64,000 nucleotides of DNA from Tubulanus polymorphus (GCF_964204645.1 NC_134031.1:11472088-11536087); one strand, 5' to 3'; counted from the stretch's first letter, positions 24,301 to 52,891 are shown. Notes: a model not told the origin generated them from the sequence alone. Program-made: numbers and translations.

Positions 24301-24302
24301 TT

Positions 24303-27771: not shown

Positions 27772-28304
27772 AGTAGTATACAAAATAGCGGTTCTGGCGC
27801 AGCCCGACCCCGGTTCTGGCGCAGCCCATCCTTACCCCGGTATACCGTGTACCCTCTCAAAGCTTTATCTCCACCTAAATACCCTAAGAAGACAACCCCT
27901 GTGGACTGCGGTTCTGGCGCAGCCCATCCTTACCCCGGTGTACCATGTACCCCCTCAAAGCTTTTTCTCCACCTAAATACCCTAAGAAGACAACCCCTGT
28001 GGACCATGGAAAACACGCCAAGGGGCCGGCAAACCCCCTCCGGCCCCTATAAACCAACCGCTATAATGCACCTACAACAAAGTGTTATTTACATAGATAT
28101 TTACAGTATATACAAGTATGTGAAACGCTCTGACCTGGAATTCACCTCTTAAGCTGACGCTATCAGCGGTGCGCTGCGACCTGATTGTCACTGATTGCGA
28201 AATAGCCTAGAAAGTTCTATGCTGACGCAGAAGCCGGCAAACAACCGAGACATCGGCAGGCAACCAGAGTCATGTCCCTTGGACATGGCCAGGCCCGGCC
28301 AACA
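27772..28304. repeat. Mav-2 left TIR (533 bp) with two internal ~120-bp units
   Basis: Inverted match to 39465-40019; lacks one 22-bp sub-repeat. Confidence 0.95.
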
Positions 28305-28387
28305 TTCGGCGTGTGCCGACTTCTGACGAGGGGCCTCCCAAAAATTTCCATTTAGAGATATATATTTCTCATATATGCGAAAGCAAG

Positions 28388-29963
28388 ATGGACAGCGCGG
28401 TAAAAAGTCTGACCGATTTACTTCGAGACGGGCAGATTACTGTCGTAACATATGCCGATGCCATCAACCAGTTGACCCGCAGACCGACGCCTGCTCCGAG
28501 AAAGCCAAAACCCGCCCCCAGAAAACCCAAGTACAAGGTAGAAAACATTATACCGGACGATGATCCGATTTGGGATGAGATTCTACCGGAGCCAGAACCC
28601 GCGTTTCATAGGGCCCCGTTTGCTATCCAAAATTATCTGAGGGCCTGGGTTTTGAGACCAGCCACCGATATGACTGATCCGTCGATATTCTTGCGCGAAC
28701 AGCGGAACAATGTAAGGGAGAAGTTAGTCGAGGAGATCATTGACCTTAAGGGTGTAAAATTCTCCATTGCTCTGCGGGTTTCGTTGAGGAAGGAGAAGAA
28801 CGACGGCACCTATGCGCACGTCGAGCCGCCCTTCTGGTCGAAGCAATACGTTCTATCGAAGGCGGCTAACATAAATGAGGAGTTTGGTAAAGCTGAAGCT
28901 AGGGTTATACAGAGTATTGAGAATTATATGAGAGAAGGTTATATCGACCTCCCCGTCGCAGTCAAGAGAAGACACGCCGTCGTAAATGTCAAAAATAGAG
29001 ATGATCACTGCCTTAAGTGGTCAATACTGGCCTCGAAATACCCCGTAGAGAGAGACCCCCAGAGGCCATCGAAGTATGCGAATCACTGGGACCAGCTTGA
29101 ATTTACAGGCATCGATTCACCAACACCATTGAGTCAGATTCCTATGGTCGAACGACAAAACGGACTGGCAATCAACGTGTTCGGGTATGACAAAGGCGTG
29201 TACCCACTGCATATCAGCGATGGCCCGGCCCCCATTCCTAGAATTAACTTGCTTCTCGTAGAGAGCGGTGAGAAACAGCATTACACATGGATCAAAGACC
29301 TCAATCGCCTGTTGTTCACCCAGAGTAAGTTTGAAGGGAGGAAACACTTCTGCGAGCGGTGCCTTCATTGTTTCACCAGAGAAGATCTCCTGGAGAGGCA
29401 CAGGTCAGATTGTCGAGGAGTCAACGGACGTCCGATGCGTACCAGTATGCCCTCGGAGGAGGACAGAGTGCTGCGGTTCACCAATCATCACAAGCAGCTC
29501 AAGATTCCGTTCGTCATCTATGCCGACTTCGAAGCCATTACAACCAAATTCGAGGGGCCCGGAAGGAACCCGAACCAGAAAGGTAGCGAAAAGACTCAAC
29601 TTCACGAGGCGTGCGGGTTCTCGTACGTGGTAGTGAGAAGCGACGGTAAACACGAACCACCCGTCCTTTATAGAGGCCAAGACGCTGCGGCGGTATTTCT
29701 TCAGCACCTCCAAGGGGAAGAGGAGAAAATAAAGGGCGTGCTCGCCCATCCCGCGCCTATGGTAACTACTCGGGAGGAGCAAACGTCATTCGAGGAAGCG
29801 GAAAATTGCTACGTATGCGACAAACCACTCTATGAGGATCGGGTCAGGGATCACGATCACATAACGGGTGACTACCGGGGCCCGGCCCACAACGAGTGCA
29901 ATCTCAAGTTGCGACTGTCCGCGAAATACACGCCTATATCGGTCATGTTTCACAACCTCCGCG
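28388..29963 (+). pseudogene. pPolB: Mav-2 pPolB N-terminal half (terminal-protein region, Exo I, endonuclease VII-like insert); polymerase domain missing
   Basis: NVKNRDDHCLKWSIL, CERCL, YADFEA, VRDHDHITGDYRGPAHNECNL; homology stops at FHNLR (Exo II start). Confidence 0.92.
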
Positions 29964-30253
29964 TGGTCGCAGGCATTGAACGATACAGTTTGCAGTTCAT
30001 GGCTCTGTCCGGCTTCGCCTGGGAGGAAATAAATCTGGAAGCGATTTGGAAGGAGATGTTCACCGACAACCGCGTAAACTGGGGTCGAATAGTCACGTGA
30101 ATCGCATTCGCTAGCTATCTGGCTAAGCATTTCTTCCGAGTCACCGATAACCTCGATTACGCCGAAGAGATCGCATTTAGAACGAGGGAGTTCTTTAACG
30201 ACAATCTCGCATACTGGGTTATCGAGCAAGGTGGCTGGTCAGAATTACCATGA
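29964..30253 (+). pseudogene. Bcl-2-family homologue, 5'-truncated, fused in frame to pPolB, one internal TGA (30098-30100)
   Basis: BH1 EMFTDNRVNWGRIVT*IAFASYL; same frame continues 50 codons with BH2 AYWVIEQGGWSELP*. Confidence 0.85.
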
Positions 30254-30293
30254 GACGGAAAGCGAGTTTTTTCTGGCTTACAGTATAGCTACT

Positions 30294-31538
30294 ATGTCTG
30301 CATACGGTAAACACTTGAACCCTTCGAGACAGATTCGAAGACCGCTAGGTGTCAAGGCGGATCGACACCACGAGGTTATTACCCACAACCCTTCGTCCGT
30401 GTCACCGGGGGAAACCCTTTACGTAAGGATACCAAAACTGCAGGTGAACACGCTGGTACCCGGAAGCTTGAAACTCACGTTCGACCTCAGCAAAGAGGGT
30501 CCGGCTAATAACTTCTTCGTGAACAACATTTCGAGGAACCTAATGGCCAGAATCGTTGACAAACTGGGTGGTGAAATCTTATCGGATTTGAACTACAGCT
30601 TCGTCTTCCAGACCTACAAAGATCTGTGGCTTACGGACAAAAGGCGAAGTAACATGATTCTGGATGGAATCGGCAACGAGAACTTGAGGAAACTCAGATC
30701 GGATGCAGAAGACGCCTTGAAAACCAACACCAAGGAAACGATGATCAAGTCGGTGTTTAAGAACAGGTACGCCATACCCATTGATTTCGAACTGTACACG
30801 GACCACGGTCCTTTCTATCCGTTCGCAATCAACGAGGACTTTGTTAGGGAGATCACTTTCAACGAAATCAAGTTCACTGTAAACGGGAGTGCGGAGGCAT
30901 GGGGATACTCCGTGAAAAATATAGCCCTCGAATACGACACCGTGCATTCGGCGGAGCTCGCCAGACAGATCGAAGCCGACCTGTCCGCCGGGGTAAGCTT
31001 CTTGTACGACTACGTCACGTACTTCAGGAGTCAATCCACGGGAACCTCGACAATTCTGAACGTAAACGTTAACGTTCCCCGAAGGTCGATGAAGGGCCTG
31101 TTGATATTCTTTCAAGAAGAGTTTGACAACGGGCAGTACGATTCCGAATCCACCTCGTTTCAGAACCCTAACATCAAGAACGTCGACGTCACGATCGAAG
31201 GAATATCTCACAAAGTGTACAAGCAAGGACTGAAACCTTACCAACAATGGGAAGAGTGCAGAAGATTTCTGATGCCAGAATCGGCCAAAGAAACCGACGA
31301 GTCGCACATAGACGAGTTCTCGTTCTTCGTCGACGACAAATACGCATTGTGGATCGATCTCAGAAGCACAGACGACAACTCGCTTCACGGATCTGGTCTA
31401 AGGTTGGTCAACACAAAGGACGGCGTTCAGTTAGCCATCACCCGTACCAGCACAATGGAGTACACGATGTTCATTTACGTCGTAGCCGACGCCCAAGTAA
31501 ACATCCAGAACAACCAATTAAAGGCGATTCTGTTCTAA
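30294..31538 (+). CDS. Mav-2 major capsid protein (double jelly-roll expected)
   Basis: Full-length similarity to Mav-3 415-aa ORF (THNPS, YKDLWLT, PRRS.KG.LIFF, LW.D.R.T.DNSLHGSG); size and position next to ATPase fit Maverick MCP; probable start is ATG 30294. Confidence 0.85.
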   Translation: MSAYGKHLNPSRQIRRPLGVKADRHHEVITHNPSSVSPGETLYVRIPKLQVNTLVPGSLKLTFDLSKEGPANNFFVNNISRNLMARIVDKLGGEILSDLNYSFVFQTYKDLWLTDKRRSNMILDGIGNENLRKLRSDAEDALKTNTKETMIKSVFKNRYAIPIDFELYTDHGPFYPFAINEDFVREITFNEIKFTVNGSAEAWGYSVKNIALEYDTVHSAELARQIEADLSAGVSFLYDYVTYFRSQSTGTSTILNVNVNVPRRSMKGLLIFFQEEFDNGQYDSESTSFQNPNIKNVDVTIEGISHKVYKQGLKPYQQWEECRRFLMPESAKETDESHIDEFSFFVDDKYALWIDLRSTDDNSLHGSGLRLVNTKDGVQLAITRTSTMEYTMFIYVVADAQVNIQNNQLKAILF

Positions 31539-31550
31539 TGTATAGCGGAG

Positions 31551-32165
31551 ATGGATAGGCTTTGTTTACAGCCCCCGTTCAACATGATTGTGTCGGGGCA
31601 AACGAACTGCGGAAAAACGCACTACGTCCTCGACCTCCTACAATCTGTCTATCGCGGCAAATTCCACAATATAGTGATTTTCTGCCCGACTTTCCTCGAG
31701 AACACCACCTACGATAGATCGTTTGTGATGAAGGACCCCAATACCTTCGTCATGAACCCGGGTTCGGTGTTAAACGACCTAGACGGTTTGCTTTCCACGT
31801 GCACCAAAGTATACGGCGATCCTCATTGTCAAACTGTGTTTCTTATAGACGACTGTGCCAACTTGAAGGATACTAAAACCAAGTCGTCCGAATTGACGAA
31901 ACTCGCGTTCTCGGGCCGTCATCTGAATATCTCAGTGTGGGTGCTCACTCAAAAATACAACGCCGTTGTGAAAGATTTCCGAGAAAACCTGAGAATGTTA
32001 GTCCTGTACCACCAAAAAGACGAGGATGGTTTAAAGGATGCTCTGCGTGAAAACAACATCGTCCCGAAAAACAAAAGGGAACGTGTGATCGCAGATCTCT
32101 CTGCTAGGAATCGGGCCCGTCTCGTCATGCGCCTCGAGTATCCATTCGCCTACGGGGTATTCTAA
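31551..32165 (+). CDS. Mav-2 A32/FtsK-like packaging ATPase
   Basis: GQTNCGKT, FLIDD, SGRH, LTQ. Confidence 0.95.
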   Translation: MDRLCLQPPFNMIVSGQTNCGKTHYVLDLLQSVYRGKFHNIVIFCPTFLENTTYDRSFVMKDPNTFVMNPGSVLNDLDGLLSTCTKVYGDPHCQTVFLIDDCANLKDTKTKSSELTKLAFSGRHLNISVWVLTQKYNAVVKDFRENLRMLVLYHQKDEDGLKDALRENNIVPKNKRERVIADLSARNRARLVMRLEYPFAYGVF

Positions 32166-32192
32166 ATTTTGGACGACTAACATATAGCGAAC

Positions 32193-32690
32193 ATGAACGA
32201 AGTCTACGACGAACTACTGAGTGACATTGGGTTGGATGTAGAATCACCCGAAGACGACGAGTCGGAAGGGCGCAGGCAGCTACTTGTCGGGCTTTCTCAG
32301 AGCGGGTTGCTTGCAAAAATAGGTATCAAGAAATCCGAAGGTCAACTTAAGAAGATGAACTCGAAAGCGCTCGAACGGGTGCGGACGGAGTACGAAAACC
32401 GTTATTCCGCCGCGGTTTCCGACAGTCTGATCAACAGCATACTCTATTCCAAGCTCTGCAAGTGGTTCAGACCTAACGTAGACACAGAACAGCTAAACAA
32501 GGAGTTGACTGAAAACTTTGTTATCACCGCCGAGATGAAAAACCAGCTCGGCCATCTGGGTAGGATTCTGAAGACTGCCATACTCGCAATCGCGAACGTT
32601 GCGGTAATCACCGGGAAGAATATGGCAGATTCTGAGGAAAGTGACTTGTCCACTTGTCCGCAAGTAACTAGTCCACTTGCCGATAAGTAA
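32193..32690 (+). CDS. Conserved Maverick protein, homologue of Mav-3 200-aa ORF
   Basis: YSKLC and downstream L..N.(F/Y).(V/I)..E(M/L) pattern shared. Confidence 0.75.
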   Translation: MNEVYDELLSDIGLDVESPEDDESEGRRQLLVGLSQSGLLAKIGIKKSEGQLKKMNSKALERVRTEYENRYSAAVSDSLINSILYSKLCKWFRPNVDTEQLNKELTENFVITAEMKNQLGHLGRILKTAILAIANVAVITGKNMADSEESDLSTCPQVTSPLADK

Positions 32691-32737
32691 ATTTCCCACT
32701 TTCCCGTAAGTCGTATTTTCCTCTCTTGCATATAGGG

Positions 32738-33055
32738 ATGGAACAAGTGGAACAAGTGACGACTAACCCGCATAAACAAAAGTCCCCTGGTCGAGTCGCA
32801 TGGGGCAAAAAGCTTGCCGAAATAAGTAGGCAGCAGCGAGCCTCGAAGAAAACGGCTGCCCCGATTGTCGGTTCCGACGACGAAAACAGAACCCAGTCAA
32901 AACACCTGCAAATGTGGATCGCGATAGGCGGGTTGTTAGTGGGCCTCGGAGCTCTATACTATCAGAGAATGGCGCTAAACCAAACCCCGAAACCCGAAGA
33001 AAACACGGAACCAACACCCGAACCTTTAACTTGTCGCCTTGTGGAGATGACCTAA
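32738..33055 (+). CDS. Small basic single-TM protein, homologue of Mav-3 122-aa ORF
   Basis: RVAWGKKLAEISR plus a TM segment. Confidence 0.75.
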   Translation: MEQVEQVTTNPHKQKSPGRVAWGKKLAEISRQQRASKKTAAPIVGSDDENRTQSKHLQMWIAIGGLLVGLGALYYQRMALNQTPKPEENTEPTPEPLTCRLVEMT

Positions 33056-33080
33056 ATTTTCTGTAGATAGATATAGCACG

Positions 33081-33320
33081 ATGGCAACGAATCCAGACTA
33101 TCGAACAATCGCAAACGTACTTTATCACTCGGCCGTTCTAAGCGGACTGACCGTAGGGTACGCGATGCTCGGGAAGAAAATGCTACGCTTCGATGTGGGT
33201 GATCCCTCCAAGGCTGACCTTTCCGAAGCTATGAAACTCACGGTTGCGGTTTCTTTAGCAACCATCTCCAAGGATTACCTGGAGAAGTCGAAATTCGAAA
33301 AATTCTGCCCCCAAATATAG
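33081..33320 (+). CDS. Small hydrophobic protein, homologue of Mav-3 73-aa ORF
   Basis: TVGY.M..KK and KLT.AV.L...DYLEK shared. Confidence 0.8.
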   Translation: MATNPDYRTIANVLYHSAVLSGLTVGYAMLGKKMLRFDVGDPSKADLSEAMKLTVAVSLATISKDYLEKSKFEKFCPQI

Positions 33321-33330
33321 GGACCTAATC

Positions 33331-33740
33331 ATGGCTACTGCAGCGGTTATCATCGGCGGCGCCATAGCGAACGCTGTGGCATTTACCGGAGGCCAAGCAA
33401 TCTATAGAGCGGTACAAGGCGACTCCGGAGCTGCCCAAGAACGAGAGAGGCTATGGAGCGATTGAACGCGGCAATGGTGACCTGGAACGAGAAACGGCAA
33501 AAGACACTGGACTACCTCAACAGGGAGCTGCAAAAAGAGATGCAGACAAAATCCGACTTTTCGGACGTCGATGAGGCCCTTAGGCTTTACAACAGTACCA
33601 GGAACGACAAATTATCTTTGAGGCAGCGGCCGGTGCTAGGCGATTTCTATTCCCCTTCAGACGACCAATTGAACAGTGAGTACGCCTTTATATTAGGCAG
33701 TACAATTCTGACCGGCGTCATCGCGTACAAATATCTGTAA
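33331..33740 (+). pseudogene. Homologue of Mav-3 140-aa ORF, frameshifted near 33450
   Basis: AIANAVAFTGG from ATG 33331; C-terminal part in ORF 33453-33740. Confidence 0.8.
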
Positions 33741-33743
33741 GTT

Positions 33744-34262
33744 ATGGACGACCCCTACGGTATATTGCCTAAGGAGTTTGATCTTGAAAGGCTCGAGAGA
33801 GAACTCGAAGACTACGTAAACCCTCCTCTTCGGTTGCAGATCAAAAAGGTTCCGAAACCGAAACAAGTCCACATCCCTCCGGCGAATTACGACTATCGAA
33901 CCTACTTGGAAGACCACATAAATCGCGGTTTGGACGGTGGGTTTCTCGACATTCCTACATGCGCGATGATCAGATATTGCTTCGCCGACGTCTATCAACT
34001 CTTCCTCGAAAAGTTCCCTCGTCGGAAAAACTTCCTTTCCTACGGATTCTTCTTAAACCGAATCCTCGAGCTACATGGAAAGCCGGAACGTAAGTTCGGG
34101 AAAGAACCAGTGTCGAAATTTGCTTTGGCACAAAACTGGAATTTGTGGGAAGCGTACGAGGAGTGGATCCAAAAACAAATGGACGAGTTCGATGTTTCCG
34201 ATTCTTGCAGAAATTCCTGGCTTAATTATAGACGATGGCGGAATTCGACGTTGATCCGATAG
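33744..34262 (+). CDS. VLTF3 (poxvirus A2/NCLDV late transcription factor)-like protein, C-terminal domain only
   Basis: FPRRKNFLSYGFFLNRILELHG...QNWNLW resembles the VLTF3 signature RKNFLSYxYxLxKxxELLG...QDxIW; recognised from motif only. Confidence 0.6.
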   Translation: MDDPYGILPKEFDLERLERELEDYVNPPLRLQIKKVPKPKQVHIPPANYDYRTYLEDHINRGLDGGFLDIPTCAMIRYCFADVYQLFLEKFPRRKNFLSYGFFLNRILELHGKPERKFGKEPVSKFALAQNWNLWEAYEEWIQKQMDEFDVSDSCRNSWLNYRRWRNSTLIR

Positions 34263-35343
34263 ACTGGGACGTGGAGCCTCAAGATGACGCCGTAGGCGAG
34301 CTCATTCCCATGGAAAACCTGGGAGAAAAAGACGGCATCATCGACTCGCTGCTCGGTAAATTCGGCGGTAACCTGGACGACATGGAGCGAGCCCTGATGC
34401 GCCTGCAACTACAAAAACAAGACGATACCTGGTTCTTCCAGACGGAACTGAACGGTGATCCAGTTCGGGTGAAACTTACCGGTAGGAGCGGTCAAGTACT
34501 CGCGCATAGTACCATCTCGAAAGCGAAAGGGGCTCTGAGTTTTTCCATGCTCTGGGCCCGGACAGACCGGTGAGAATGGAACGAGACCCGTTGGAACCAT
34601 CTATCGTGGAGCGCTTGTCGGTGGATAACGAGTTGAGTTTGCAGCAGGAAATAGAGGACATCGTCAATGACGACAGGGCTCCGCTGAGACCAGAAGACAG
34701 ACGTGAACTCCGGGGGGTAGCTACTACTTTGGTTTCTACGTCCAGCAAAATTAAGTCAGCAGCTGTAAACGTGGAATGGGCCCAACGAGAACTAGAAAAG
34801 GCTCAGAAAGAGCGCGATGACGCGGTGTCCGAACAAGACATCCGATACTGGGACGACGAAGTAGAAAGGTTCGAAGCTCAGGAAGCAATATACAGGCGGA
34901 CCTACGAGGCTCTACGGCAGGGGGAGACTTCTCAGATCGAGAGGTTGAAGAGGCTTCTGAAGAACGAAGATAATCGGCCCCTCGGCGTAAAGATCCGGGA
35001 GTTGTTCAAACAGGAAGGGATTACGTTGGTGAGCGTTGTCACGGCCATCGGGCTCGCAATCGCGAACGGGCTCAAAAGCGTAGTAACACCCAGTCCGCCG
35101 GTTGGACCGGGAAAAGAACCCAAGTCCAGGATTCGAGAAGCTCTGAAAAAGATCGCGGCGTTTCTTAAATATCTCGCAGGGAAAGGAGCTGCCGCGTTGC
35201 CGGGAATGATCGGAACGGTGGTTAGCTTCCTGTTGAGGAAAGCCGGAGAAGCAGTCGGATTCGTGGCCGAGCACTTGGTGTTGTTGTTTATCGCTGCAGT
35301 CGGTCTGTCTTTCCAAGTCCTGAGCAAGAAATTCTCGCGTTAG
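34235..35343 (+). pseudogene. Coiled-coil protein with hydrophobic C-terminus, homologue of Mav-3 490-aa ORF, frameshifted near 34540-34570
   Basis: LFKQEGIT..S..TA, AAALPG.I...V.F.L..AG, FVAEHL shared. Confidence 0.82.
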
Positions 35344-35354
35344 ATATAGGAAGG

Positions 35355-36074
35355 ATGTTAGTCATCCACTGTTACGGTAAGGATCCGACCGTGCGTCTAA
35401 AAACGCATCTCGACACGGGTGGCTTCAAAACTGTAGCCTTAAGACGGGCTGTCATTTCTCTGGCTTACTTCAACGTTTCCGACAAACTGAACAACCACAG
35501 GTTTCGCTACATGACCGGAGAAAGGGTGGACGAGCACCAACAAAATGTGTTCAACTTGATTATCAGGAATGGACTTTACACGGTTGAGAGTTTGAACGAC
35601 GAAATTCAGCGAGTCATAACCCGAAACGGTCACAAACCGGGCTTCATTAACATAGCCTACGTGGAGGCGAGGGGGCGCATCGAACTCAATGTCAAAAAAC
35701 CGTACCGAGTGCTCTTCAGCGGCTCCATCACCGATCTGTTGGGAGTCCCGGAAAGATATTACCCAAACGTCGAAGGTAAAGAGGTTAGTGTAAGGGGTAC
35801 GAAAGAATGTAGGTTTACCAGGCATACGGAATACCGCGTAACGTGCAATCTCGTTGACGAATCGAGAAACTTCCTAAACGGGGTGCCCTCGGACCTGATC
35901 GCCATTTTACATCCGAAAGCAGGTCAATACGGCGACTCATTCGAGTACGTTTACGGGGTACCGATACCAATTAAGGAAGGCGGCTTCGCCGACGTAGTGG
36001 TCAAGGTTTTCAATCAGGACATGGAGGAGATTCGATTCCAGGAACCGCTCCAAATTTTGCTCGCATTAGAATAG
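35355..36074 (+). CDS. Mav-2 minor capsid (penton-like) protein
   Basis: G.Y..E.L..EI, LLG and CNLVD motifs shared with 44984-45739. Confidence 0.7.
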   Translation: MLVIHCYGKDPTVRLKTHLDTGGFKTVALRRAVISLAYFNVSDKLNNHRFRYMTGERVDEHQQNVFNLIIRNGLYTVESLNDEIQRVITRNGHKPGFINIAYVEARGRIELNVKKPYRVLFSGSITDLLGVPERYYPNVEGKEVSVRGTKECRFTRHTEYRVTCNLVDESRNFLNGVPSDLIAILHPKAGQYGDSFEYVYGVPIPIKEGGFADVVVKVFNQDMEEIRFQEPLQILLALE

Positions 36075-36076
36075 AG

Positions 36077-36535
36077 ATGAACTTGTACAGGGGATTAGGG
36101 AAAACACAGTCCACCACAAAACCTGTGATAACCGTTTGGGCCGAGGAAAAAGGACCCCTTGGTGAGGGCTCTTACGAATTTTCGTACGGTGATGGGTCGC
36201 GATCCCAGTACGCGGGCTACACGATGATGTGTCCGGGGAGAGTGCTAAAAATGGGCCTCTCCGGTGGCGACTTGACAACTAATACCACAGTAGTGTTGAC
36301 CGTCAACAGGGTGGAAAAAGGAGAAATCACGAAAGAGGCTCGGCTTTTACAGGGCCCGATCAAACCCCAAGGTAAAGGAGTCTTCCAAGCCGCGGTCAAA
36401 ACGTTCTCTCCACCAGTCGAATTGGCCGAGGGCGACGTCATCAATTTCAAGTCGTCGAGATCGCCCGCTACTCGAGCAATAGCTACGATAGCTTCACTCC
36501 TCATCGAGCTCGACATTTTCCCGCATAGTATATAG
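36077..36535 (+). CDS. Hypothetical beta-rich protein, no counterpart in Mav-3
   Basis: Tightly packed 152-aa ORF with AATAG just upstream. Confidence 0.6.
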   Translation: MNLYRGLGKTQSTTKPVITVWAEEKGPLGEGSYEFSYGDGSRSQYAGYTMMCPGRVLKMGLSGGDLTTNTTVVLTVNRVEKGEITKEARLLQGPIKPQGKGVFQAAVKTFSPPVELAEGDVINFKSSRSPATRAIATIASLLIELDIFPHSI

Positions 36536-36536
36536 C

Positions 36537-37137
36537 ATGGATAGCGACACTAAACTTTACCCAATGGTTCCAACTGAGCCTAGTGCTCCAACTGAAGATG
36601 CGTCGAACTTCCGACTGCAGAAAATATGCGAAGTCCAGAAAACAGGGACAATCCCGCGCTGCGCTCTACAAGAAGTATAAAAGGGCGGTGAAAACCATAG
36701 ATGGATTTGACGCGGCTTTCGTGACGGCTAGCATAGCAGTCGCGGCTACGGGAGCCGCTGGCGTGCTTACAAACATAATCACCATCCCCGTTGCGACCGT
36801 CCTAGGCGTCTTAGGCGTGTCTGGGAAGATAGTCGGTCGGAAGCTTCTGATCAAGGCTAAAAAGCACGACGAAATTCGAGTGTTAGCCTCTTCCAAACTA
36901 AGCACCGTGTCAGATCTTGTATCGAGGGCAATAAGTGATGGAGTTGTTTCGGATGACGAGTTCAAGCTGATTCTAGCCGAACAGAGGAACTATCAGACTT
37001 TGAAGCAGGATATCAAGTCACAGGCTCGTAAAAAACACGGGTCGATCACGATCGACGAGGCTACAAAAAGGGACCTCATCAGGCAGGGCAGGGAGCAGGC
37101 CAGGGCTTCCATCATAAAAAAGCTGGATGGAGGTTAA
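36537..37137 (+). pseudogene. Hydrophobic-hairpin protein, homologue of Mav-3 144-aa ORF; frameshift near 36645
   Basis: MDSDTKLYP..SAP..NFRLQKI from ATG 36537, then KKYK plus hydrophobic hairpin in ORF 36583-37137. Confidence 0.7.
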
Positions 37138-37146
37138 CGTTAGAGT

Positions 37147-37908
37147 TTAACAGAGACACGTCACCCCCGGATTACTACCATTGAGAGCTGCTCCCGATTT
37201 AGCTAGTTGGTCCGCCATCTCATTCCCGTGTACCCCCTGGTGACCCCTGACGTATTTGAAAGATACGGAGACTCGGTTATTCAGACCATCCAGTTGTGTC
37301 CAGAGATCGCGGTTTTTGACGTTTTTCCAGCACCTGGCTTTCCACGTCTTGATCCAATCAGTGATACCGTTTATAACGTATTTCGAGTCGGTGAAGATTT
37401 GCAAGGAGTTAATACCAAGCTGGATGGCCTGATTGAGAGCCACGACGACAGCGGTTAATTCACCTCTGTTGTTGGTAGGTGGATAGACGACGGCACAGGT
37501 GTTTAAGGGACTGTCTGGTCCCCAGTAGACTCCGTAGCCCGCACGAGCCTCGTCTGCACCGTTTCTCAGGCACGAGCCGTCTGTATACACTTCGGGTATA
37601 TGCTCCGGATAGATGTCGAATACGCCAAACGCCTTAGAGCTACAGGGGAATTTTTCTGGGTCGGAGGTGGCGTGCGCGAATATTCCTAAGTAGTGGCATT
37701 TTATGAACGCCTTCGAGTTTTTATGGTTGAGGGATTCGAAAGCGAGATCGAGATAATGGCTGTTTTCGAATTTCGAGATGGCTACTTCAACGATGTTTTC
37801 GTCGGGAGAAGTGATAAGGAAGTAGACCTTCAGTGCATGAAGCCAGTGGTATACGGTGGACGGTACTTGAAAAGTGAGCAATCGACGGTGACCCCATTTA
37901 TGTAGCGT
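37147..37908 (-). CDS. RNase H1 (cellular/metazoan type), probably the C-terminal part of an RT-RNase H polyprotein
   Basis: YTDGS, TNNRGEL, FTDSKYVI..ITDWIKTWK..W, VKNRDLW, VRGH.G..GNEMADQLAK: all D-E-D-D residues and the His loop present. Confidence 0.95.
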   Translation of the reverse strand, partial: TLHKWGHRRLLTFQVPSTVYHWLHALKVYFLITSPDENIVEVAISKFENSHYLDLAFESLNHKNSKAFIKCHYLGIFAHATSDPEKFPCSSKAFGVFDIYPEHIPEVYTDGSCLRNGADEARAGYGVYWGPDSPLNTCAVVYPPTNNRGELTAVVVALNQAIQLGINSLQIFTDSKYVINGITDWIKTWKARCWKNVKNRDLWTQLDGLNNRVSVSFKYVRGHQGVHGNEMADQLAKSGAALNGSNPGVTCLC

Positions 37909-39391
37909 TTACAAAGACACTGTCGATTAGCTGCAAGCAATTATCAGACAGGTCGTTGATCATGAGGTCATGGTAATCAGCTCTCAGCATATAGTCTATA
38001 GCGATATGAACCTTTGTCCCGCTTTGTATATCGGCGTTATCTATGTTTGCGAGTCGTTGCCTGAATTTTGTGAGGAGAATTTCACCCACCCCTTCCTGTC
38101 CCTTGGGACTGAAAATATTGCCTAGATACGTTATTCTGTCCAAATCGGTGAGGGTCGCGGTGTCTTTGCCCTCTATCTCGTTTTTGAATGGCTCAATTCG
38201 TCCGCGTCTAACGCTCAGGGAAACGCATTTGTCCGGCCTGAGTTCAAGGTTCATTTCCTTGGCTTTTTTGTTAAACGCGTACGTTATATCTAAGTGGGCT
38301 TTTGCCGATTTTGTTTCCAGCGTTGTGTCATCTGCATAGGCTAGGGATGTCCCGGTTGACAGTATTCTAACGAGGGGTTCTACGCACAAGATGAAAATTA
38401 GGGGGCTAAGAGGGCAACCCTGAAAGACCCCTCGTTTGTAGGGGATATCGACCGTGCCCCAAGGACCTTTGAATTTGCTAGAAATTTGAGAATACAGCGC
38501 CGTTAGGTACCTATACCAGCTTGCGGGAATTCCAATGACAGATAGCGTTTCACTTACCAGTTCGTGTTCGATTGAACCGAATGCATTTTTAAGGTCAAAT
38601 AAAGTCACAAATGAGTCATTTTCAGTTTTTTCGGCTTCGATGATTTTAGTCTCTAATAATTCAGAATGTTCCAGTGTCCCGTGAAGGCCCGACACGAATC
38701 CTTTTTGTACGGCAGTGTCGATGAATCCGTTCCTAATGACGTGGCGTTCTATGCGTTTCGCCATTATCCGATGAAGGAGCCTCGAGATCACGCTTGTAAC
38801 CGCAATCGGACGATAGTTAGCAGGATCCCGGCGGTCCCCTTTCTTGAATAGAAGCGTCACAACGGTGCACCACGCGGAGATTTTCGAAGGTGGCCTTCCC
38901 GTATCTAGTATGTTGTTGTAAAATCGCGCGAGTCGATGGGTGTGCTGACGGAGATGTCCGTATTTGATCCTGTCTAGACCTGGAGCGGACTTTGGGTTGC
39001 TGCTCCTCAAGGCTTTTTCGATTTCAGCTGCGGTTATCGGTGACATATCGAACGGGAACGCAACGTTCTTGACGGGTGGCTTAGGAAAAGGACCGGTCTG
39101 CTTACTAGAATACAGGTCCGTGAAGTATTCCTTCACCCGTCGTTTAGTCGGAAATGCATCCTCCTGCGTTTGATTGCTCGGGGAACCCGTAATAATCTGC
39201 TTGGCTGTTGTAAAGAACCGATTTGCCCTGTTGAGTTTGCTGATTTTTCTCACTAGGCCGAAGAATTCTTTCGAGCTGGCTTCATTCTTGAACAGCGTCT
39301 TCCGTAATTCACATTTCCGCTGTTTCAGGGTTTTCGGCAACCCGGCTTTAATGTCACTCACCAGGTTTTGATAGATCAGATCTGTGTCCAT
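37898..39391 (-). CDS. Non-LTR-type reverse transcriptase (RLE-clade-like), no endonuclease
   Basis: KSAPGLD, KKGD...NYRPI, QKGF..G..EH, FDLKNAFGSI.H, GVFQGCPLSPLIF, AYADD, KC, YLG; first in-frame ATG at 39391. Confidence 0.96.
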   Translation of the reverse strand: MDTDLIYQNLVSDIKAGLPKTLKQRKCELRKTLFKNEASSKEFFGLVRKISKLNRANRFFTTAKQIITGSPSNQTQEDAFPTKRRVKEYFTDLYSSKQTGPFPKPPVKNVAFPFDMSPITAAEIEKALRSSNPKSAPGLDRIKYGHLRQHTHRLARFYNNILDTGRPPSKISAWCTVVTLLFKKGDRRDPANYRPIAVTSVISRLLHRIMAKRIERHVIRNGFIDTAVQKGFVSGLHGTLEHSELLETKIIEAEKTENDSFVTLFDLKNAFGSIEHELVSETLSVIGIPASWYRYLTALYSQISSKFKGPWGTVDIPYKRGVFQGCPLSPLIFILCVEPLVRILSTGTSLAYADDTTLETKSAKAHLDITYAFNKKAKEMNLELRPDKCVSLSVRRGRIEPFKNEIEGKDTATLTDLDRITYLGNIFSPKGQEGVGEILLTKFRQRLANIDNADIQSGTKVHIAIDYMLRADYHDLMINDLSDNCLQLIDSVFVNAT

Positions 39392-39464
39392 TTCTGACCA
39401 CGCAGAATCTATATCCACCTTGGTGAGTGAACCAGGACTCTCACGAGACGCGCTTCACCTGGTG

Positions 39465-40019
39465 TGTTGGCCGGGCCTGGCCATGTCCAAGGGACATGAC
39501 TCTGGTTGCCTGCCGATGTCTCGGTTGTTTGCCGGCTTCTGCGTCAGCATAGAACTTTCTAGGCTATTTCGCAATCAGTGACAATCAGGTCGCAGCGCAC
39601 CGCTGATAGCGTCAGCTTAAGAGGTGAATTCCAGGTCAGAGCGTTTCACATACTTGTATATACTGTAAATATCTATGTAAATAACACTTTGTTGTAGGTG
39701 CATTATAGCGGTTGGTTTATAGGGGCCGGAGGGGGTTTGCCGGCCCCTTGGCGTGTTTTCCATGGTCCACAGGGGTTGTCTTCTTAGGGTATTTAGGTGG
39801 AGAAAAAGCTTTGAGGGGGTACACGGTACACCGGGGTAAGGATAGGCTGCGCCAGAACCGGGGTCGGGCTGCGCAAGAACCGCGGTCCACAGGGGTTGTC
39901 TTCTTAGGGTATTTAGGTGGAGATAAAGCTTTGAGAGGGTACACGGTATACCGGGGTAAGGATGGGCTGCGCCAGAACCGGGGTCGGGCTGCGCCAGAAC
40001 CGCTATTTTGTATACTACT
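39465..40019. repeat. Mav-2 right TIR (555 bp)
   Basis: Inverted match to 27772-28304. Confidence 0.95.
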
Positions 40020-40025
40020 AACGGC

Positions 40026-40219: not shown

Positions 40220-40680
40220 AGTAATAGGGGTAATAGGCTTTCAAGCCAAAGGTCGAACGGTCGAGCTCGTAAAAAATGAAAAACATAAAAATAATTACAA
40301 TTTCTACTTGAATTACTCGCGAAACTCATAAAAATGAAAAATAAATTCTCACACGCTCGAATTTATTTTTCATTTTTATGATTTTCACTCCTAATTCAAG
40401 TAGAAATTGTAATTATTTTTATGTTTTTCATTTTTACTCACCCGCCCGTTCAACCTTTAGCTTGAAAGCCTATTACCCCTATTACTCTTAAAATATTCAT
40501 ATATATGAATAACATTTAAATCATTGAACTTCTAAAATCAATTTTAATAAAAAATATAGTATTAAAATGGAAGCAAATAAGTACTACTGCCCAACATGTA
40601 ATATCGATATAGATAAGTCCCAAAAAGCAAGACACAATAAAACTAAAACACATTTAGAGAATAAATTGAAACTAGAGTAT
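40220..40680. repeat. Mav-3 left TIR; 40220-40486 is an imperfect fold-back palindrome
   Basis: Essentially identical inverted copy at 58279-58739. Confidence 0.97.
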
Positions 40681-43600
40681 AAAGATGATATATTAGAAAC
40701 TAAATTAGATGAATTAAAGAATGAAAAAGAAACATACAAATGTGATATATGTAATCAATCATTCAGTGATAAAAGATATTATAAAGAACATTTAAAATCT
40801 ATAAGTCATATTAGAAATAAGAATAATGATATTATAGGTGAAGATTATTTTGATAATGATAACGATAAGAAACAAAGCGCAATTAAAAGAATAAAAAATA
40901 AATTAAACAATAAAAGACCATACATGGAAGATGTAAGAAATTATATTAATTCATTAGATAATAAAAAAGATATAGAGATAACCGAAGCATTTAAAAGTGA
41001 TATTGGTCCAGCAGCTATCGAGTTTAAATTTCATAAAGGAAAAACAAGAAAATAAAAAACATTTAGAAAATATGAAAGAAATAATAAAAATAATTACAAA
41101 CGTAGAATATCCAAAAATTAGTATATCAGTTAAAGTAAAGTTTATAAAATCTGAAGATAAACCAATATATAATATAAATTCTCATTCACAACATATTATA
41201 TCTAAACAACATATAGATGATAAATTAAATAAATGTTATAATGAAATAAAAACTAAAACAGAAGAGAAATATTTTGAAGGATCTGGTTTAATATTTGATG
41301 AGATAATATTTATAACTTTACATGTTTATAACACAAAATATAATAAGTTAAGTAAATCAAAACCAATTGATGAAAATAATTTATCATATTATAAAGATGA
41401 TAGTATAAATGGAACAAGTTATATTAAACTACCATTTAAAACTAATGGTGTAATAAATATACAAAATTTTGATAATAAATGTTTTATATGGGCTATAATA
41501 AGTTGTTTACACCCAGTTGAAGATTATAAACAACATAGTTTTAGATTAACTCATTATAAACAATTTGAAAATAATTATAAGATAGATAAGTATCCTGTTA
41601 GAATTAAAAATATTCCAAAAATAGAAAGAGATAATAATATAAAGATAAATGTATTTGATTTAATCAAATTACCAAATACAAAAGGAAATAATATTAAACA
41701 TTATACATTAGAACCTTTATACCTATCAAAAGATTATGATTCACATGATGTTATAGATATACTATATTATGAGAATCATTATATGTGGATTAAACAAATA
41801 GATTTATTTTTTAGAACAGAAAGTGATCACCATAATAAAATATATCTATGTAGAAAATGTTTACATAAATTTAGTAATGAAAGTACATTATTAAATCATA
41901 AACAACTATGTGATAATCATGATTATTGTAAATTAGTTTTACCAAATGAAAAGGATAAAATATTAGAATTCAAAAAATATGATTACAAAAATAAAGTACC
42001 ATTTGTAATATATGGAGATTTTGAATCATTAAATAAAGAATTAACAGATAAAGATAGAAAAGATATATATTATAAAAGAAAGAAATTAAATTCTAATGAA
42101 AGTGATTATTCAGATGAACCACCAATAACAAATACTATTAAAAAGATTCATCAATCAGCTGCAGCTTTCGGGTTATATATTAAATCTGATTATCCAGAAC
42201 TAATTGAAAGTGAATATTATAATTATAGAAATGAAAATGTTATCAATCATTTTTGTGACTTATTAATTGAATATGAAATAAGATTTAGTAAATTATTGAA
42301 TACAAATATAGAAATTATAATGACAGAAGAAGATAAAGAAGTATTTGCGTTTGCAGATAAATGTTATTATTGTGAAAAGATATTTAATTATAAAGATAAA
42401 AAAGTAAGAGACCATGATCATTTGAATGGAAAGTTTAGAGGCGCTGCACATGAGAATTGTAACTTACAAGCTAAGAAAATTAACTTTATACCAGTTATAT
42501 TTCATAATCTATCAGGATATGATGCACATTTATTTATCAAACAGCTATGTTATAAAATAGAAGAAATTAATAATGAAATAGAAAGATTAAATTCAAATAG
42601 ATCAAAAGATAAAATACCAACTTATAAATCTAAAATGTTAGCTAAAACATCTGAGAATTATATATCATTCCAAATTGGTTGTCTAAGATTTATAGATTCA
42701 TATAGATTTTTAAGTAGTTCATTAGATAACTTATCAAAATCATTAGTTGATGATGAATTAAAGATATTAAAAGAATATTACCCAAATAATGATGATTTTA
42801 AATTAATGAGATATAAAGGAGCAATTCCATATTCTTTCTATAAAAATCATAATGATTTTAAAATAACTGAATTATTGAAAGAACAATTCTATGATGAATT
42901 AAAAAATGAATATGTTAAAGATGAAGTATATAATAGAACATTGAATATTTGGAATCATTTCAAAATAGAAAATCACGGGCAATTAGTAGATTTATATTTA
43001 AAATCAGATGTATTATTATTAACTGATATATTCGAAAGGTTTAGAGATGTAAACCTAAAATATTTTAACATTGATCCTTGTCATTGTTATTCATCACCAG
43101 GATTAACATGGGATTGTGGTTTAAAATTTACAGATATAAAAATGGATTTGTTAACAAATATAGATCAATTATTATTATTTGAAAAATCTATAAGAGGAGG
43201 TGTTTCAGGTGTATTGGGTGATAGATATTTCAATGTAAATGATAATCCTGGATATAAATTATTATACATAGATGCAAATAATCTTTATGGTAGGGCAATG
43301 ATGGAACCACAACCTTATGGGATGTTTGAAATAACTGAAGTTTTACAAATTGATAAATTTGATTGGAAGAAAAGAATCCTAGATATTGCAGATGATTCAG
43401 ATATTGGTTACTTCTTCGTTGTAGATTTAGAATACCCTGAAAATATCAAATTCAAATCTAGAAATCTAGCATATTGTCCCGAACATAAAACTGTTAAACA
43501 TGAAGAATTATCAAATTATCAAAAAAGAATTAAACCCGATAATCATATTCATACAGAAAAGTTAATGGAACCTCAAGAAGATAAATATAATTATGTAGTA

Positions 43601-44596
43601 CATTATAGAATGTTGAAGTTTTATTTGAGACAAGGAATGATATTAAAAAAAGTACATAGATATATTTCATTCAGTCAATCTAAATGGTTAGAAAAATATA
43701 TAGATTTTGATACTACACAGAGAACTAAATCTAAAACTGATTTTGAAAAAGATTTTTTTAAGTTAATGAATAATGCATTCTATGGAAAAACTTGTGAAAA
43801 CATAAGAAATAGAAATGATATTGAGTTAGTTAGTAATGGTAAAAGGATAAGGTATTTACAATCATATCCTAAGTTTATAGGTAACAGAATATTTGATGAA
43901 AATTTAGCAGCAGTTAATATGAGAAGAACATCAATGAAATTTAATAAACCAATTTATGTTGGAGCTGCAGATTTAGAAATTTCAAAGCTATTGATGTATG
44001 AATTCTATTATAATGTATTACAACCTCATTTTGGAGAAAAACATATAGAAATCTTATATTTTGATACTGACAGTTACATATTAAAGATAAAAACTGATAA
44101 CATAACAGATGATTTAAAAACATTAAAACACCATTTTGATTTTAGTAATTATCCAAAAAATCATGAATTGTTTAGCAATGATAATAAAAAAGTTCCTGGG
44201 AAGTTTAAGGATGAATTAGGTGGTGAAGAAATGATAGAGTTCATTGGTATTAGATCTAAAATGTATTCATATAAAACTAAAGAACATGAAGCTAAAAAGT
44301 TAAAAGGAATAACCAAAAGCGTTGTTGAAAAGAATATTCATTTTAAAGATTACATCAATTGTATATTTAATGAAGAAGTTAGAAAACATAAGATGAAATG
44401 TTTAAGATCTGAAGATCATGAAATGTATATTGAAGAGATAGAGAAGATAAGTCTAAACCCATTTGATGATAAAAGATATATTTTAGATGATGGAATCCAC
44501 ACAGTCGCCTATGGTTGCAATTTAGATGAATATATAAAATTCAAAAGAGAAGAAACAAAAGAAAATGAGATTATGAAAAGGATTCTAGCGTGTTAA
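40567..44596 (+). CDS. pPolB: Mav-3 protein-primed DNA polymerase B with N-terminal C2H2 fingers and endonuclease VII-like insert; 4-bp deletion after 41046 splits it into ORFs 40567-41055 and 40997-44596
   Basis: YGDFES, FHNLSGYD, YLKSDV, YIDANNLYG, KLMNNAFYGK, YFDTDS; Mav-1 and Mav-4 read KGKTLEENKK through the break. Confidence 0.97.
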
Positions 44597-44624
44597 TCAA
44601 TTTCAATAAAAATTTGTATAATAA

Positions 44625-44966
44625 ATGGAGAGTAAACAAGTACACAGTGAATTCTTAGAAAGAATTAAAGATATAACAAATGTAAAATCTGTAGATTATA
44701 AATTCAAAAAGTTAACAGAATTAACAATCCATAAGAAATATCTAATTACAAATATTGTTACAGTTACTAATAACTATGGAGATAAATTAGTAATTCATTT
44801 AGAATATGAAGGATTAAAAGGAAATAAATATAAATTCAGAACTTATTTACCAGATAGATTTCATAGATTATCAAGTGAAGATCTAGAAGAATTATATTCT
44901 GGTGATTTCTATTTCATATATAAAGGTAAGAATGAAAAAGGGCACCATGAAATAGATTTCGAATAA
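44625..44966 (+). CDS. Hypothetical 113-aa protein (possible OB-fold)
   Basis: Intact ORF with TAAATG start; conserved in the Mav-1 TIR. Confidence 0.7.
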   Translation: MESKQVHSEFLERIKDITNVKSVDYKFKKLTELTIHKKYLITNIVTVTNNYGDKLVIHLEYEGLKGNKYKFRTYLPDRFHRLSSEDLEELYSGDFYFIYKGKNEKGHHEIDFE

Positions 44967-44983
44967 GAAAATATGTAAAATAA

Positions 44984-45739
44984 ATGGTAGAATTAAAAGA
45001 ATACAGAATATTTGTAGATTCTAGAAAACTTACAAATTATAAATCTCATAATTTACTAATACAATTAGATAGAGAATTCAAGAATTGTGTAGATTTAAAA
45101 TTAGTTAATATAAGTTTATGTAATTCTTTTCATAATATATCGAATAAAAGTCTTAATCATTTAGCTTTTAAAATTTATGTTAGAAATTTGAATAAATGGT
45201 TTCATCTTTATCTAAAACCAGGATTATATAATTTAGAAACATTAGCGCAAGAAATTAATAAAAGAGCTCGTTTAAAAATGGGCTCAGCTGCTCGATTTGA
45301 AATTAAATTCATCAAAAGTGATAGTTCGAATAAAATAAGAATAAAGTTAACTAATGAACAACATAGATTTCTAGTAAGAAAACCTTTAGCTAAACTGTTT
45401 GGAATTCTTCCGGATAGACATTATTCAAATATTGATACTTATACAAATATAATACCTTTTACACACTTTTATATTTATTGCAATCTAATCGATCCTACAA
45501 AAACATTTGAAGCAACTAAAGATACAACATGTAATTCTAGTATATTAAATATTTTACCATTAAAAAATGTTAAACAATTTGGAACGCAAATAAATTATAA
45601 TTTAGCTGAATGTGATTTCAAACCTTGTATTCCTCAATTTAATAATTTTAAATTAGAAATAAGAAATCATAATGGATACTTAATTGATTTGAATAACTTT
45701 CCTGTAATTTATGAATTAGTTATAAGATGTAAAGAGTAA
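44984..45739 (+). CDS. Mav-3 minor capsid (penton-like) protein
   Basis: VDSR, PGLYNLETL, LFG, YIYCNLI, EIRNHNG..IDLN pattern typical of Maverick mCP. Confidence 0.75.
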   Translation: MVELKEYRIFVDSRKLTNYKSHNLLIQLDREFKNCVDLKLVNISLCNSFHNISNKSLNHLAFKIYVRNLNKWFHLYLKPGLYNLETLAQEINKRARLKMGSAARFEIKFIKSDSSNKIRIKLTNEQHRFLVRKPLAKLFGILPDRHYSNIDTYTNIIPFTHFYIYCNLIDPTKTFEATKDTTCNSSILNILPLKNVKQFGTQINYNLAECDFKPCIPQFNNFKLEIRNHNGYLIDLNNFPVIYELVIRCKE

Positions 45740-45755
45740 TTTTTCACCTATATAA

Positions 45756-46115
45756 ATTAATATAACTGTTGGACCGAGTATATGTTTTGGATTTGATTTT
45801 AAACGTGAGAAAGAAATGAAATTTAACATGAATGATGTAATTACACACATCAAAAATATTGCATTTTCTAATGAAACAACATTTGAGTATGAAACAACAA
45901 TAAATATAGAAACTTTAAATGTAGAAAAGATTACTAATTTAATTAGAGAATCTTTAAGATTTTATGAATTAGATGAAGATTTTATCATATATGATATTAA
46001 AAACATATTAACCAAAATATATGATAATCATAAAACTAGTAATAAAATAAATGTTGAATTAATCATAAATAAGTTAACTAAATATTTTGATGATAGTAAT
46101 TTTTTTGATAAATAA
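45756..46115 (+). CDS. Hypothetical protein; ancestral ATG mutated (TAAATT), ORF now starts at 45816
   Basis: Mav-1 copy 23195-23527 begins TAAATG-NITVGPSICFGFDFK. Confidence 0.65.
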   Translation: MNITVGPSICFGFDFKREKEMKFNMNDVITHIKNIAFSNETTFEYETTINIETLNVEKITNLIRESLRFYELDEDFIIYDIKNILTKIYDNHKTSNKINVELIINKLTKYFDDSNFFDK

Positions 46116-46337
46116 ATGAGTGATAATAAGTGGATAATAACTGGATTATATAATGGCGCATTACTATCAGTTGGAACGGTTGGTTATTCAATGGTATTAA
46201 AAAAAGTATTCAAAATGGGAAGTGTTAATGTTGATAGATTTGATATAAATGATATTTTAAAGTTAACATTAGCAGTTACTTTATCTAATTTAACTATTGA
46301 TTATTTGGAAAAACAAAAATATATTCCTCCCATATAA
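46116..46337 (+). CDS. Small hydrophobic conserved protein (73 aa)
   Basis: Homologous to 33081-33320. Confidence 0.8.
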   Translation: MSDNKWIITGLYNGALLSVGTVGYSMVLKKVFKMGSVNVDRFDINDILKLTLAVTLSNLTIDYLEKQKYIPPI

Positions 46338-46361
46338 ATGCATAATTTTTTTGCTAAATAA

Positions 46362-46784
46362 ATGGCTTCTGCAATTATAACTATTATAGGATCGGCAATT
46401 GTTAACGCTTTAGCATTTACTGGTGGTGGATATTTATTTAAACATATTGATAAAAATAGTTCATTAGGAGAACAAAGAAGACATAACTTAGCGTTAGAGA
46501 AATACAATAAAGCTGCAGAAGAATATAGAGAAAAGAGGCAAAACTATATGGATTACATCAATAAAGAATTATATGATCAGAAGATTTCACATAGAGATTT
46601 TCAATCAGTTGATGATGCAATGAGTTTATATAACGCAGTAACAAATAAAGAAAAATTACATCTATACAAACCTAAATTATCAGATTATTATACCCCAAGT
46701 AAAGAACAACAGAAATATGAAATAATATGGATTTTAGGTGGAACTGTTATTGTTATATTTGTTGCTTATAAGTTTACTAATTAG
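46362..46784 (+). CDS. Conserved protein with hydrophobic ends (140 aa)
   Basis: Homologous to 33331-33740 and 22525-22940. Confidence 0.82.
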   Translation: MASAIITIIGSAIVNALAFTGGGYLFKHIDKNSSLGEQRRHNLALEKYNKAAEEYREKRQNYMDYINKELYDQKISHRDFQSVDDAMSLYNAVTNKEKLHLYKPKLSDYYTPSKEQQKYEIIWILGGTVIVIFVAYKFTN

Positions 46785-46803
46785 TAATTTTTATTCTAAA
46801 TAA

Positions 46804-47238: not shown

Positions 47239-47255
47239 TTTTTTTAATTATATAA

Positions 47256-50120: not shown

Positions 50121-50160
50121 ACCATGATTAAAAATAAATAATTAATTTTTTGTTAAATAA

Positions 50161-51408: not shown

Positions 51409-51440
51409 AATTTTAACTTTAATAAAAATTTATTATATAA

Positions 51441-52504: not shown

Positions 52505-52509
52505 AAAGA

Positions 52510-52874: not shown

Positions 52875-52891
52875 TATTTTGAATTAGGATT

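Follow-up and report, generated by a model that had tools for sequence, protein, structure and literature searches.

A nuclease-free reverse transcriptase–RNase H gene in a decayed Maverick of Tubulanus polymorphus, very probably resident in its element family

Mavericks (Polintons) are treated as pure DNA replicators, and reverse transcriptases (RTs) met inside them have so far been read as parasitic insertions. In the available text of the sources consulted, RTs in Polinton-type elements are described only as nested retrotransposons (PMC11071296, PMC12220804, PMC11131425, PMC6431247, PMC8547959, bioRxiv 10.64898/2026.06.19.733378 and 10.64898/2026.07.28.741278); the supplement of PMC11071296 holds at least 41 entries labelled “reverse transcriptase” plus one further RT entry. 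Within retrotransposons of the restriction-like endonuclease (RLE) class, RNase H is described, as far as the available text goes, only as an upstream domain of archaeal type, in oomycete Utopia (Kojima and Jurka 2015, PMC4640811). The words “reverse” and “RNase” are absent from the main text of Starrett et al. 2021 (PMC8502044), while the text of Barreat and Katzourakis 2021 (PMC8097293) lacks “RNase” and uses “reverse” once, in an unrelated sense. No resident RT of a Maverick is described in the literature searched, Repbase and subscription papers being outside its scope, and an earlier annotation may have passed unnoticed. Here, we describe a 64,000-nt stretch of the Tubulanus polymorphus genome (GCF_964204645.1, NC_134031.1:11472088-11536087; the window), in which a Maverick copy bounded by terminal inverted repeats (TIRs) carries a gene for an RT joined to an RNase H1 domain (Table 1). 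This RT-RNase H gene, located between the right TIR and a gene for a small membrane protein, is very probably a resident gene of this Maverick family.

The RT open reading frame (ORF) in the window encodes an R2-class enzyme of the non-LTR (long terminal repeat) type with domain 0, and it includes the motifs PGLD, YRPI, QKGF, DLKNAF, GVFQGCPLSP, YADD and YLG. The second frame, open from 37908 to 37150 and closed by a stop codon at 37149-37147, conserves the complete D-E-D-H-D set of RNase H1 (motifs starting at 37587, 37470, 37392, 37245 and 37221). A single frame break near 37900-37910 parts the two frames; P0001 and L001, the two related fusions discussed below, are unbroken at this junction. 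We found neither a CCHC knuckle nor an RLE in the window gene, where the RNase H closes the frame, and the same is true of P0001 and of P0005, the protein of L001. There is no Pfam match to an apurinic endonuclease (APE) domain near the window RT, the frame of which stays open through the 21 codons ahead of its ATG and meets an in-frame stop 22 codons upstream, at the TIR edge. The longest word common to the two borders of the gene, where a target site duplication (TSD) was sought, is 5 nt, and the longest A/T run near its 3′ end, where a poly(A) tail was sought, is 6.

These observations bear out what a sequence-only reading of the window had proposed, namely, a complete non-LTR-type RT within the TIRs, a catalytically complete RNase H1, one frameshift splitting a single RT-RNase H, and no endonuclease, CCHC, TSD or poly(A) at the gene. 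It was also correct in placing the stop of the gene 9 bp from that of the convergent gene and in its statement that the composition matches the element: the codon-usage log-likelihood of RT-RNase H is 0.012 under the usage of the element’s genes, within the range of the nine other genes tested (−0.009 to 0.082) and far from the neighbouring Maverick (−0.74) and host gag (−0.16). The claim that the RT start mirrors that of the protein-primed DNA polymerase (pPolB) at the other end stands for the distances (the RT ATG is set about 74 bp into the right TIR, that of pPolB about 84 bp into the left TIR), but pPolB is extant only as its N-terminal part. The TATAG motif noted upstream of the RT is present, but it is a weak argument for residency because of its 17-nt spacing from the ATG, as opposed to 1–5 nt at most other starts examined in the element; the chance of a TATAG within 40 nt is about 0.04, and we have set the motif aside as proof. 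At 8 of the 13 other starts examined (30284-36535), TATAG ends 1–5 nt before the ATG, and it is a likely late-gene promoter motif of this Maverick family.

Residency is supported by two independent lines of evidence: read depth within one species and the conservation of the fusion and its neighbour in a distant record. The copies of the family were judged from sequencing runs, four from one study plus the raw reads of run X5 from a second study with the same species label. Depth was compared over 28310-39760 between six RT-RNase H bins and 23 other internal bins; run X6, with next to none of the element, was excluded from the ratios, and X3 and X4 were compared over 36400-39760 only. The raw reads of X5 cover the RT-RNase H bins at a depth of 61.2 and the other bins at 62.9 (ratio 0.97), and the X1 contigs at 202 and 197, respectively (ratio 1.02). 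In both runs, depth in the TIR bin is about doubled, which is what reads from the two ends of the element should give at a repeat. Equal depth in two of the three informative runs indicates that most family copies hold the gene. No joint that skips the whole gene occurs among the 15 of 19 joints listed, nor among all eight of a second set, and individual contigs tie the RT to the TIR (37598-39493) and span the convergent junction (36540-37449). Among the 22 of 58 loose ends listed (at 80% likeness), none lies at the 3′ border of the gene and none indicates a free-standing RT-RNase H with ends of its own, although rare free copies may exist. Loose ends of X5 at the TIR edge match the other inner flank of the Maverick; one X1 contig continues there into unlike sequence.

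The frame break was looked at in the same data. It is absent from 43 of the 63 X5 reads and from contigs of X1, X2 and X3, while an X4 contig carries the state of the window; the break is, therefore, real and limited to some copies, and an assembly error was rejected as its cause. Neither a majority of RT-less family members nor free-standing retrotransposon copies, which the sequence-only reading had named as signs of a one-off truncated insertion, were encountered in the depth and the loose ends listed, and its view of a resident, chimeric RT-RNase H is supported by read depth and by the fusion and shared neighbour in L001.

P0001, the best homologue, is an unbroken RT-RNase H of 733 amino acids, the start of which is identical in position to that of the window RT; its identity is 41% across 99% of the RT ORF and 40% across 232 amino acids of the second frame. 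L001, the sole confirmed match among 212 pattern matches in a metagenome scan, is 51–52% identical to the window. Relatives of RT-RNase H were found neither in the viral contig scans nor in the genome contig scan. In L001, the RT-RNase H gene converges on a homologue of the window gene at 36598 (34% identity, E 5e-16) that lies 65 nt from its stop, and the Atlas clusters of this neighbour include one that is 56% viral. Comparison of the window with L001 gave a nonsynonymous divergence (dN) of 0.43 over 235 codons at a synonymous divergence (dS) of 2.7, and a dN of 0.42 over 234 codons with dS saturated. Purifying selection acts on the gene between the two lineages. Right after the RT-RNase H stop in L001 (1680-1750), an AATAAA occurs on the strand of the convergent gene.

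The origin of the RT was addressed with a quick tree of 75 of the 134 eligible RT cores, from which P0121 and P0122 had been dropped as near-duplicates. The window RT falls in a clade of nine rows, two of them partial, together with P0001-P0005, P0157, P0166 and P0233 (SH-aLRT 99). The RLE flag, a pattern made for this analysis that misses fragments, is carried by none of these nine rows versus 35 of the 66 outside. The nearest full-length relatives are proteins of about 900–1070 amino acids with RT, zf-RVT and an RLE motif, for which HERO is a presumptive label. By this pattern and tree, the clade of the window RT is endonuclease-free and nested among RLE retrotransposons. Three more compact members came from the best 150 matches of a profile search over 1.84 billion representatives. 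RNase H was found in 3 of the 294 proteins retrieved, all three compact and within the clade, and a longer, nuclease-bearing RT-RNase H parent was not among these 294.

A predicted structure of P0001 (pLDDT 82) matches L1 ORF2p 282-1062 (Z 33.9, root-mean-square deviation 4.2, 491 residues aligned) and R2Bm 315-879 (Z 33.2, root-mean-square deviation 3.7, 483 aligned); as modelled, the matching part is the RT core without nuclease. The alignment with R2Bm stops where the R2Bm knuckle lies, at 863-883 according to the available text of PMC5678591. With few RNase H rows in the alignment, the model has low confidence over that domain. In sequence, the best matches of the window RNase H are animal RNase H1 proteins (45–51% identity in the top five matches; human RNase H1, E 5e-30). 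Four RNase H-less members (P0002, P0003, P0004 and P0233) end in an acidic Y-P-[ED], while the window has DIYPE near 37610, just before the RNase H. This suggests that the RNase H domain was added after the old RT C-terminus, and the ends of the four members would place loss of the nuclease first and gain of RNase H second.

An ESM Atlas cluster of 63 members, RT proteins of 605 amino acids with a score of 0.84 versus P0001, has recorded members that are all viral and mostly Nucleocytoviricota. It is a lead, and only that, to compact LINE-type (long interspersed nuclear element) RTs in giant viruses, no description of which was found in the literature searched. An RT of an adintovirus, AdintoNC_006658_RT, is presumably an insertion of R4/Dong type. 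In the supplement of PMC11071296, it is listed for a bracovirus-associated adintovirus; it has a GVFQGD motif and lacks the RPDKC motif of the clade.

How a resident enzyme of this kind could work is suggested by what it has lost. Target-primed integration, as established for R2 and L1, cannot start without nuclease or knuckle; lacking the nuclease, the window enzyme would not prime on nicked target DNA and would instead use RNA or DNA 3′ ends already present. In the ancestry we propose, an RLE-type retrotransposon would have lost nuclease and knuckle, giving rise to the compact RT clade, after which one branch would have gained a cellular-type RNase H1 directly behind the old C-terminus and have been kept in Mavericks. 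The RNase H would clear the template RNA, as it does for retroviral RT. The most likely targets would be RNAs that are a hindrance to the virus, such as silencing or antisense transcripts, the RNA of a co-infecting virus, or RNA:DNA hybrids formed on the linear genome as it replicates, and the capture of intronless host genes would be a by-product of RNA-to-DNA copying. Provided the gene is resident, we lean, slightly, towards a predicted RNA-to-cDNA role that serves the virus. The reading as a whole, of a resident virus accessory enzyme predicted to turn RNA into non-integrating cDNA and to destroy the RNA, is about evenly poised between right and wrong.

If it is right, a selected, resident RT-RNase H would add reverse transcription to this virus group, the pairing of RT and RNase H would have arisen independently, with an RT of LINE descent and an RNase H1 of cellular origin, and a testable route would be at hand for the intronless host genes carried by Mavericks. 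The protein would also be a natural, minimal R2-type RT without nuclease, of use in asking how the RT core behaves when integration is impossible. A wider and distinctly more tentative conjecture is that an entire clade of LINE-derived RTs without nuclease was domesticated by DNA viruses of eukaryotes, and that in its Maverick branch a LINE RT and a host RNase H1 were assembled anew into an RT-RNase H of retroviral kind, so that an RNA-to-DNA step would run beside pPolB and integrase and would explain the capture of intronless host genes or the disarming of rival RNA.

Other explanations of the same gene have to be considered. The main rival is a selfish, endonuclease-free retro-cassette that would copy its own read-through RNA, the cDNA of which would recombine into RT-less Mavericks via the TIR and the convergent gene. 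The fixed site in the window, flanked by a conserved gene and the TIR, with the same downstream neighbour in L001, would fit such behaviour, and so would the patchy occurrence among Mavericks, including a sister family in these runs that apparently lacks the RT. A preference of retrotransposons for the genomes of virophages or Polinton-like viruses (PLVs) is known from Ngaro, as described in the available text of PMC8547959. The gene is, however, devoid of ends, TSD, tail or integration enzyme, its codon usage has ameliorated completely, no recent transfer from one family to another was seen, and the neighbour genes of the window and L001 lineages have diverged too far, with dS saturated, to provide DNA homology. 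The RT is better conserved than the neighbour gene (51% versus 34%), which would fit a cassette, but the rate of evolution of an RT core is usually below that of a small membrane protein. We consider a selfish cassette unlikely, albeit to be taken seriously. More improbable is that the enzyme copies the Maverick itself, either in replication through an RNA intermediate or in template-jumping repair that keeps the TIRs identical. In favour of this, the gene adjoins the TIR, mirroring pPolB, it retains the N-terminal extension that in R2 is linked to template jumping, and pPolB is cut in the window copy. Yet 35 reads (at depths of about 50–80 nearby) and an X1 contig continue past the deletion point at 29963 into sequence absent from the window, and 12 reads enter this point from other sequence, so that full copies are longer and the loss of pPolB is copy-specific. 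Since other copies thus appear to keep the pPolB sequence deleted here, RNA-intermediate replication and terminal-repeat maintenance, both floated in the sequence-only reading, are poorly supported. Genes on both strands and many separate start motifs are, furthermore, a misfit with one genomic RNA, protein priming already solves the end replication of linear DNA, and related Mavericks manage without an RT.

With slightly less probability still, the gene might be an old, 5′-truncated and dead insertion of a retrotransposon from an unknown RNase H-bearing family, carried passively as the Maverick is copied. PLVs and virophages often contain nested insertions with an RT, according to the available text of PMC12220804 and bioRxiv 10.64898/2026.07.28.741278, the frame runs open for some distance upstream of the RT ATG, and both the window copy and L001 are broken. 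This account has already been largely refuted: start and length are the same in P0001 and the neighbour is the same in L001, dN is far below dS with all catalytic residues retained, none of the 294 proteins is a nuclease-bearing parent, and depth over the gene is not raised, as it would be by free copies. Least probable of all is a benefit to the host, in which integrated Mavericks supply an RT-RNase H that turns invading RNA into cDNA for immune memory or interference; an antiviral action in protists is ascribed to PLVs and virophages (PMC12220804, in its available text), but the genomic copies seen here are decaying, and the gene is tied to the TIR and not to a host locus.

Several observations weigh against a resident gene that serves the virus. 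In X2, contig depth over RT-RNase H is 0.63 of that of the other bins, and the family-level evidence as a whole is drawn from two studies under a single species label. In other copies, the gene or its edge is hit by at least five more deletions, so many genomic copies are dead. The gene is patchy: no RT-RNase H occurs in the other Mavericks of the window, a sister family with the convergent gene occurs in X1, where no second contig covers most of the RT, and the convergent gene has 42 relatives at 41–75% identity, compared with at most 51% for RT relatives. L001 is 2.1 kb long, owes its Maverick status to one partial neighbour, and has a frame break of its own in the RT, near 175-195; gene context within the clade was read for the window and L001. 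Finally, the RNase H tree (44 rows, without retrotransposon RNase H domains) does not single out a donor, and the three fused RNase H domains form no single supported clade in it, lying beside a long branch of unnamed short proteins. Even so, we regard residency in the Maverick family as the best explanation of the gene.

The sister family is represented by contigs at 36540-36946 that, over 429 bases, differ at 43 letters and by 29 gaps, at about one fifth of the depth; it may lack the RT. A 2847-base contig of X1 joins the TIR (39465-39529) with 2411 unlike bases.

Table 1. Features of the RT-bearing Maverick copy in the window (strand relative to the window; a dot denotes no orientation).
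Feature	Position	Strand	Remarks
Maverick/Polinton copy, internally deleted	27772..40019	.	12.2 kb; AGTAGT...ACTACT ends
Left TIR	27772..28304	+	533 bp
pPolB, N-terminal part with endonuclease VII domain	28388..29963	+	
Bcl-2-like gene fragment with internal stop, fused to pPolB by deletion	29964..30253	+	Pfam Bcl-2 E 4e-14, X at stop
Probable major capsid protein	30294..31538	+	low-confidence model
A32-like packaging ATPase	31551..32165	+	Pox_A32 E 1e-17
VLTF3-like gene	33744..34262	+	E 2.8e-4, under the Pfam cut-off
Convergent small membrane-protein gene	36537..37137	+	broken near 36640 in the window copy
Second frame: remaining thumb/wrist helices, then RNase H1 domain	37147..37908	-	Pfam RNase_H E 4e-36
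RT ORF, 497 amino acids: N-terminal extension, fingers, palm (YADD), thumb	37898..39391	-	Pfam RVT_1 E 1.4e-30
TATAG motif	39409..39413	-	ends 17 nt before the RT ATG; atypical spacing
Right TIR	39465..40019	-	555 bp; read depth about 2x

The element has the TIRs, the (AGT)2//(ACT)2 ends, the 6-bp TSD and the packaging ATPase of a Maverick/Polinton. Its TSD, AACGGC, lies at 27766-27771 and 40020-40025, and the insertion interrupts a gag gene (DUF1759) of BEL/Pao type. An internal deletion at 29963 brought the N-terminal part of pPolB directly against the Bcl-2-like fragment (28388-30253), and pPolB ends just before the exonuclease motif that is present in the pPolB of the neighbouring element. 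No integrase was found in this copy; the 6-bp TSD implies the action of one, which may have lain in the deleted stretch. The window copy is a decayed deletion derivative, with pPolB cut, the integrase gone and the convergent gene broken, which the sequence-only reading had missed, and the frame break in the RT is thus one among several lesions. A role of the RT as a replacement for pPolB was considered and rejected, as the loss of pPolB is confined to certain copies and others continue beyond 29963. The candidate for the double jelly-roll major capsid protein has no sequence match in Pfam, NCBIfam, PHROG or PDB; it is 43% identical to an ORF of the neighbouring, integrase-bearing Maverick, and 22 of the top 50 BFVD matches of its model (pLDDT 39) are named capsid or coat proteins. 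For the convergent membrane-protein gene, a SLATT-like protein is a weak lead (Atlas score 0.78).

A second, AT-rich Maverick at 40220-58739 begins 200 bp after the RT-bearing one, apparently within the same BEL/Pao element. It has identical TIRs of 461 bp, the TSD AGCCGG, a pPolB of 1174 amino acids, an integrase with chromodomain and an ATPase, and no RT. Decayed relatives of it, one inverted, occur at about 10200-25000, 100-2100 and 59500-61000. Degenerate TTAGGG-like repeats with a 15-nt period at 63486-64000 suggest that this Maverick cluster is subtelomeric, in an animal genome.

Compared with the Mavericks/Polintons and adintoviruses described in the available text of PMC8097293 and PMC8502044, the element shares the TIRs, the (AGT)2//(ACT)2 ends, the 6-bp TSD, the packaging ATPase, the probable capsid gene, the N-terminus of pPolB, the Bcl-2-like gene and an accessory region beside the TIR. 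Unlike these, it includes an RT-RNase H, and integrase and most of pPolB are lost in the window copy. The nested retrotransposons described in the available text of PMC8547959 (Ngaro in endogenous mavirus-like elements, EMALEs), in cryptophyte PLVs (PMC12220804) and among the RT entries of the PMC11071296 supplement likewise place an RT, with or without RNase H, inside a Polinton-type genome; however, they show repeats of their own, an integrating enzyme or deviating GC, at varied sites, whereas the window gene has none of these and one site. Oomycete Utopia also combines an RLE-class RT with an RNase H of cellular source, but there, by the available text of PMC4640811, the RNase H is of archaeal type (R for H) and located upstream of the RT, and the nuclease is kept, while the window RNase H is of H1 type with the H, located downstream, and the nuclease is gone.

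The I-group, plant L1, Proto1 and Dualen LINEs resemble the window gene in the order of RT and RNase H, and they are the top Atlas feature matches (0.88–0.90, leads only); they are longer, mostly with an APE nuclease, and the window RT groups with RLE-bearing proteins. The comparison is indirect, as RTs of the APE class with an RNase H are absent from the tree. In retroviruses and pararetroviruses, RT-RNase H couples cDNA synthesis to RNA removal, as predicted for the window gene, but it belongs to another RT lineage; neither a primer-binding site nor an LTR or pregenomic RNA was seen in the window, and the Maverick has its own DNA polymerase. With the RLE-class non-LTR retrotransposons (R2, R4, NeSL/Utopia, CRE, HERO), the window gene shares RT sequence and fold. 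It differs from them in the absence of knuckle, RLE, untranslated region (UTR) and tail, with an RNase H1 in the place of knuckle and nuclease, and in its fixed site in a virus-like element. Neither the own ends of that class (3′ UTR, tail, TSD) nor dispersed or target-specific copies were found for it, as judged from the sequencing runs. Because a nuclease and own ends were sought and not found, we do not class the gene as a retrotransposon: the enzyme is predicted to work like the RT core of one, and the element that carries it is a Maverick deletion derivative.

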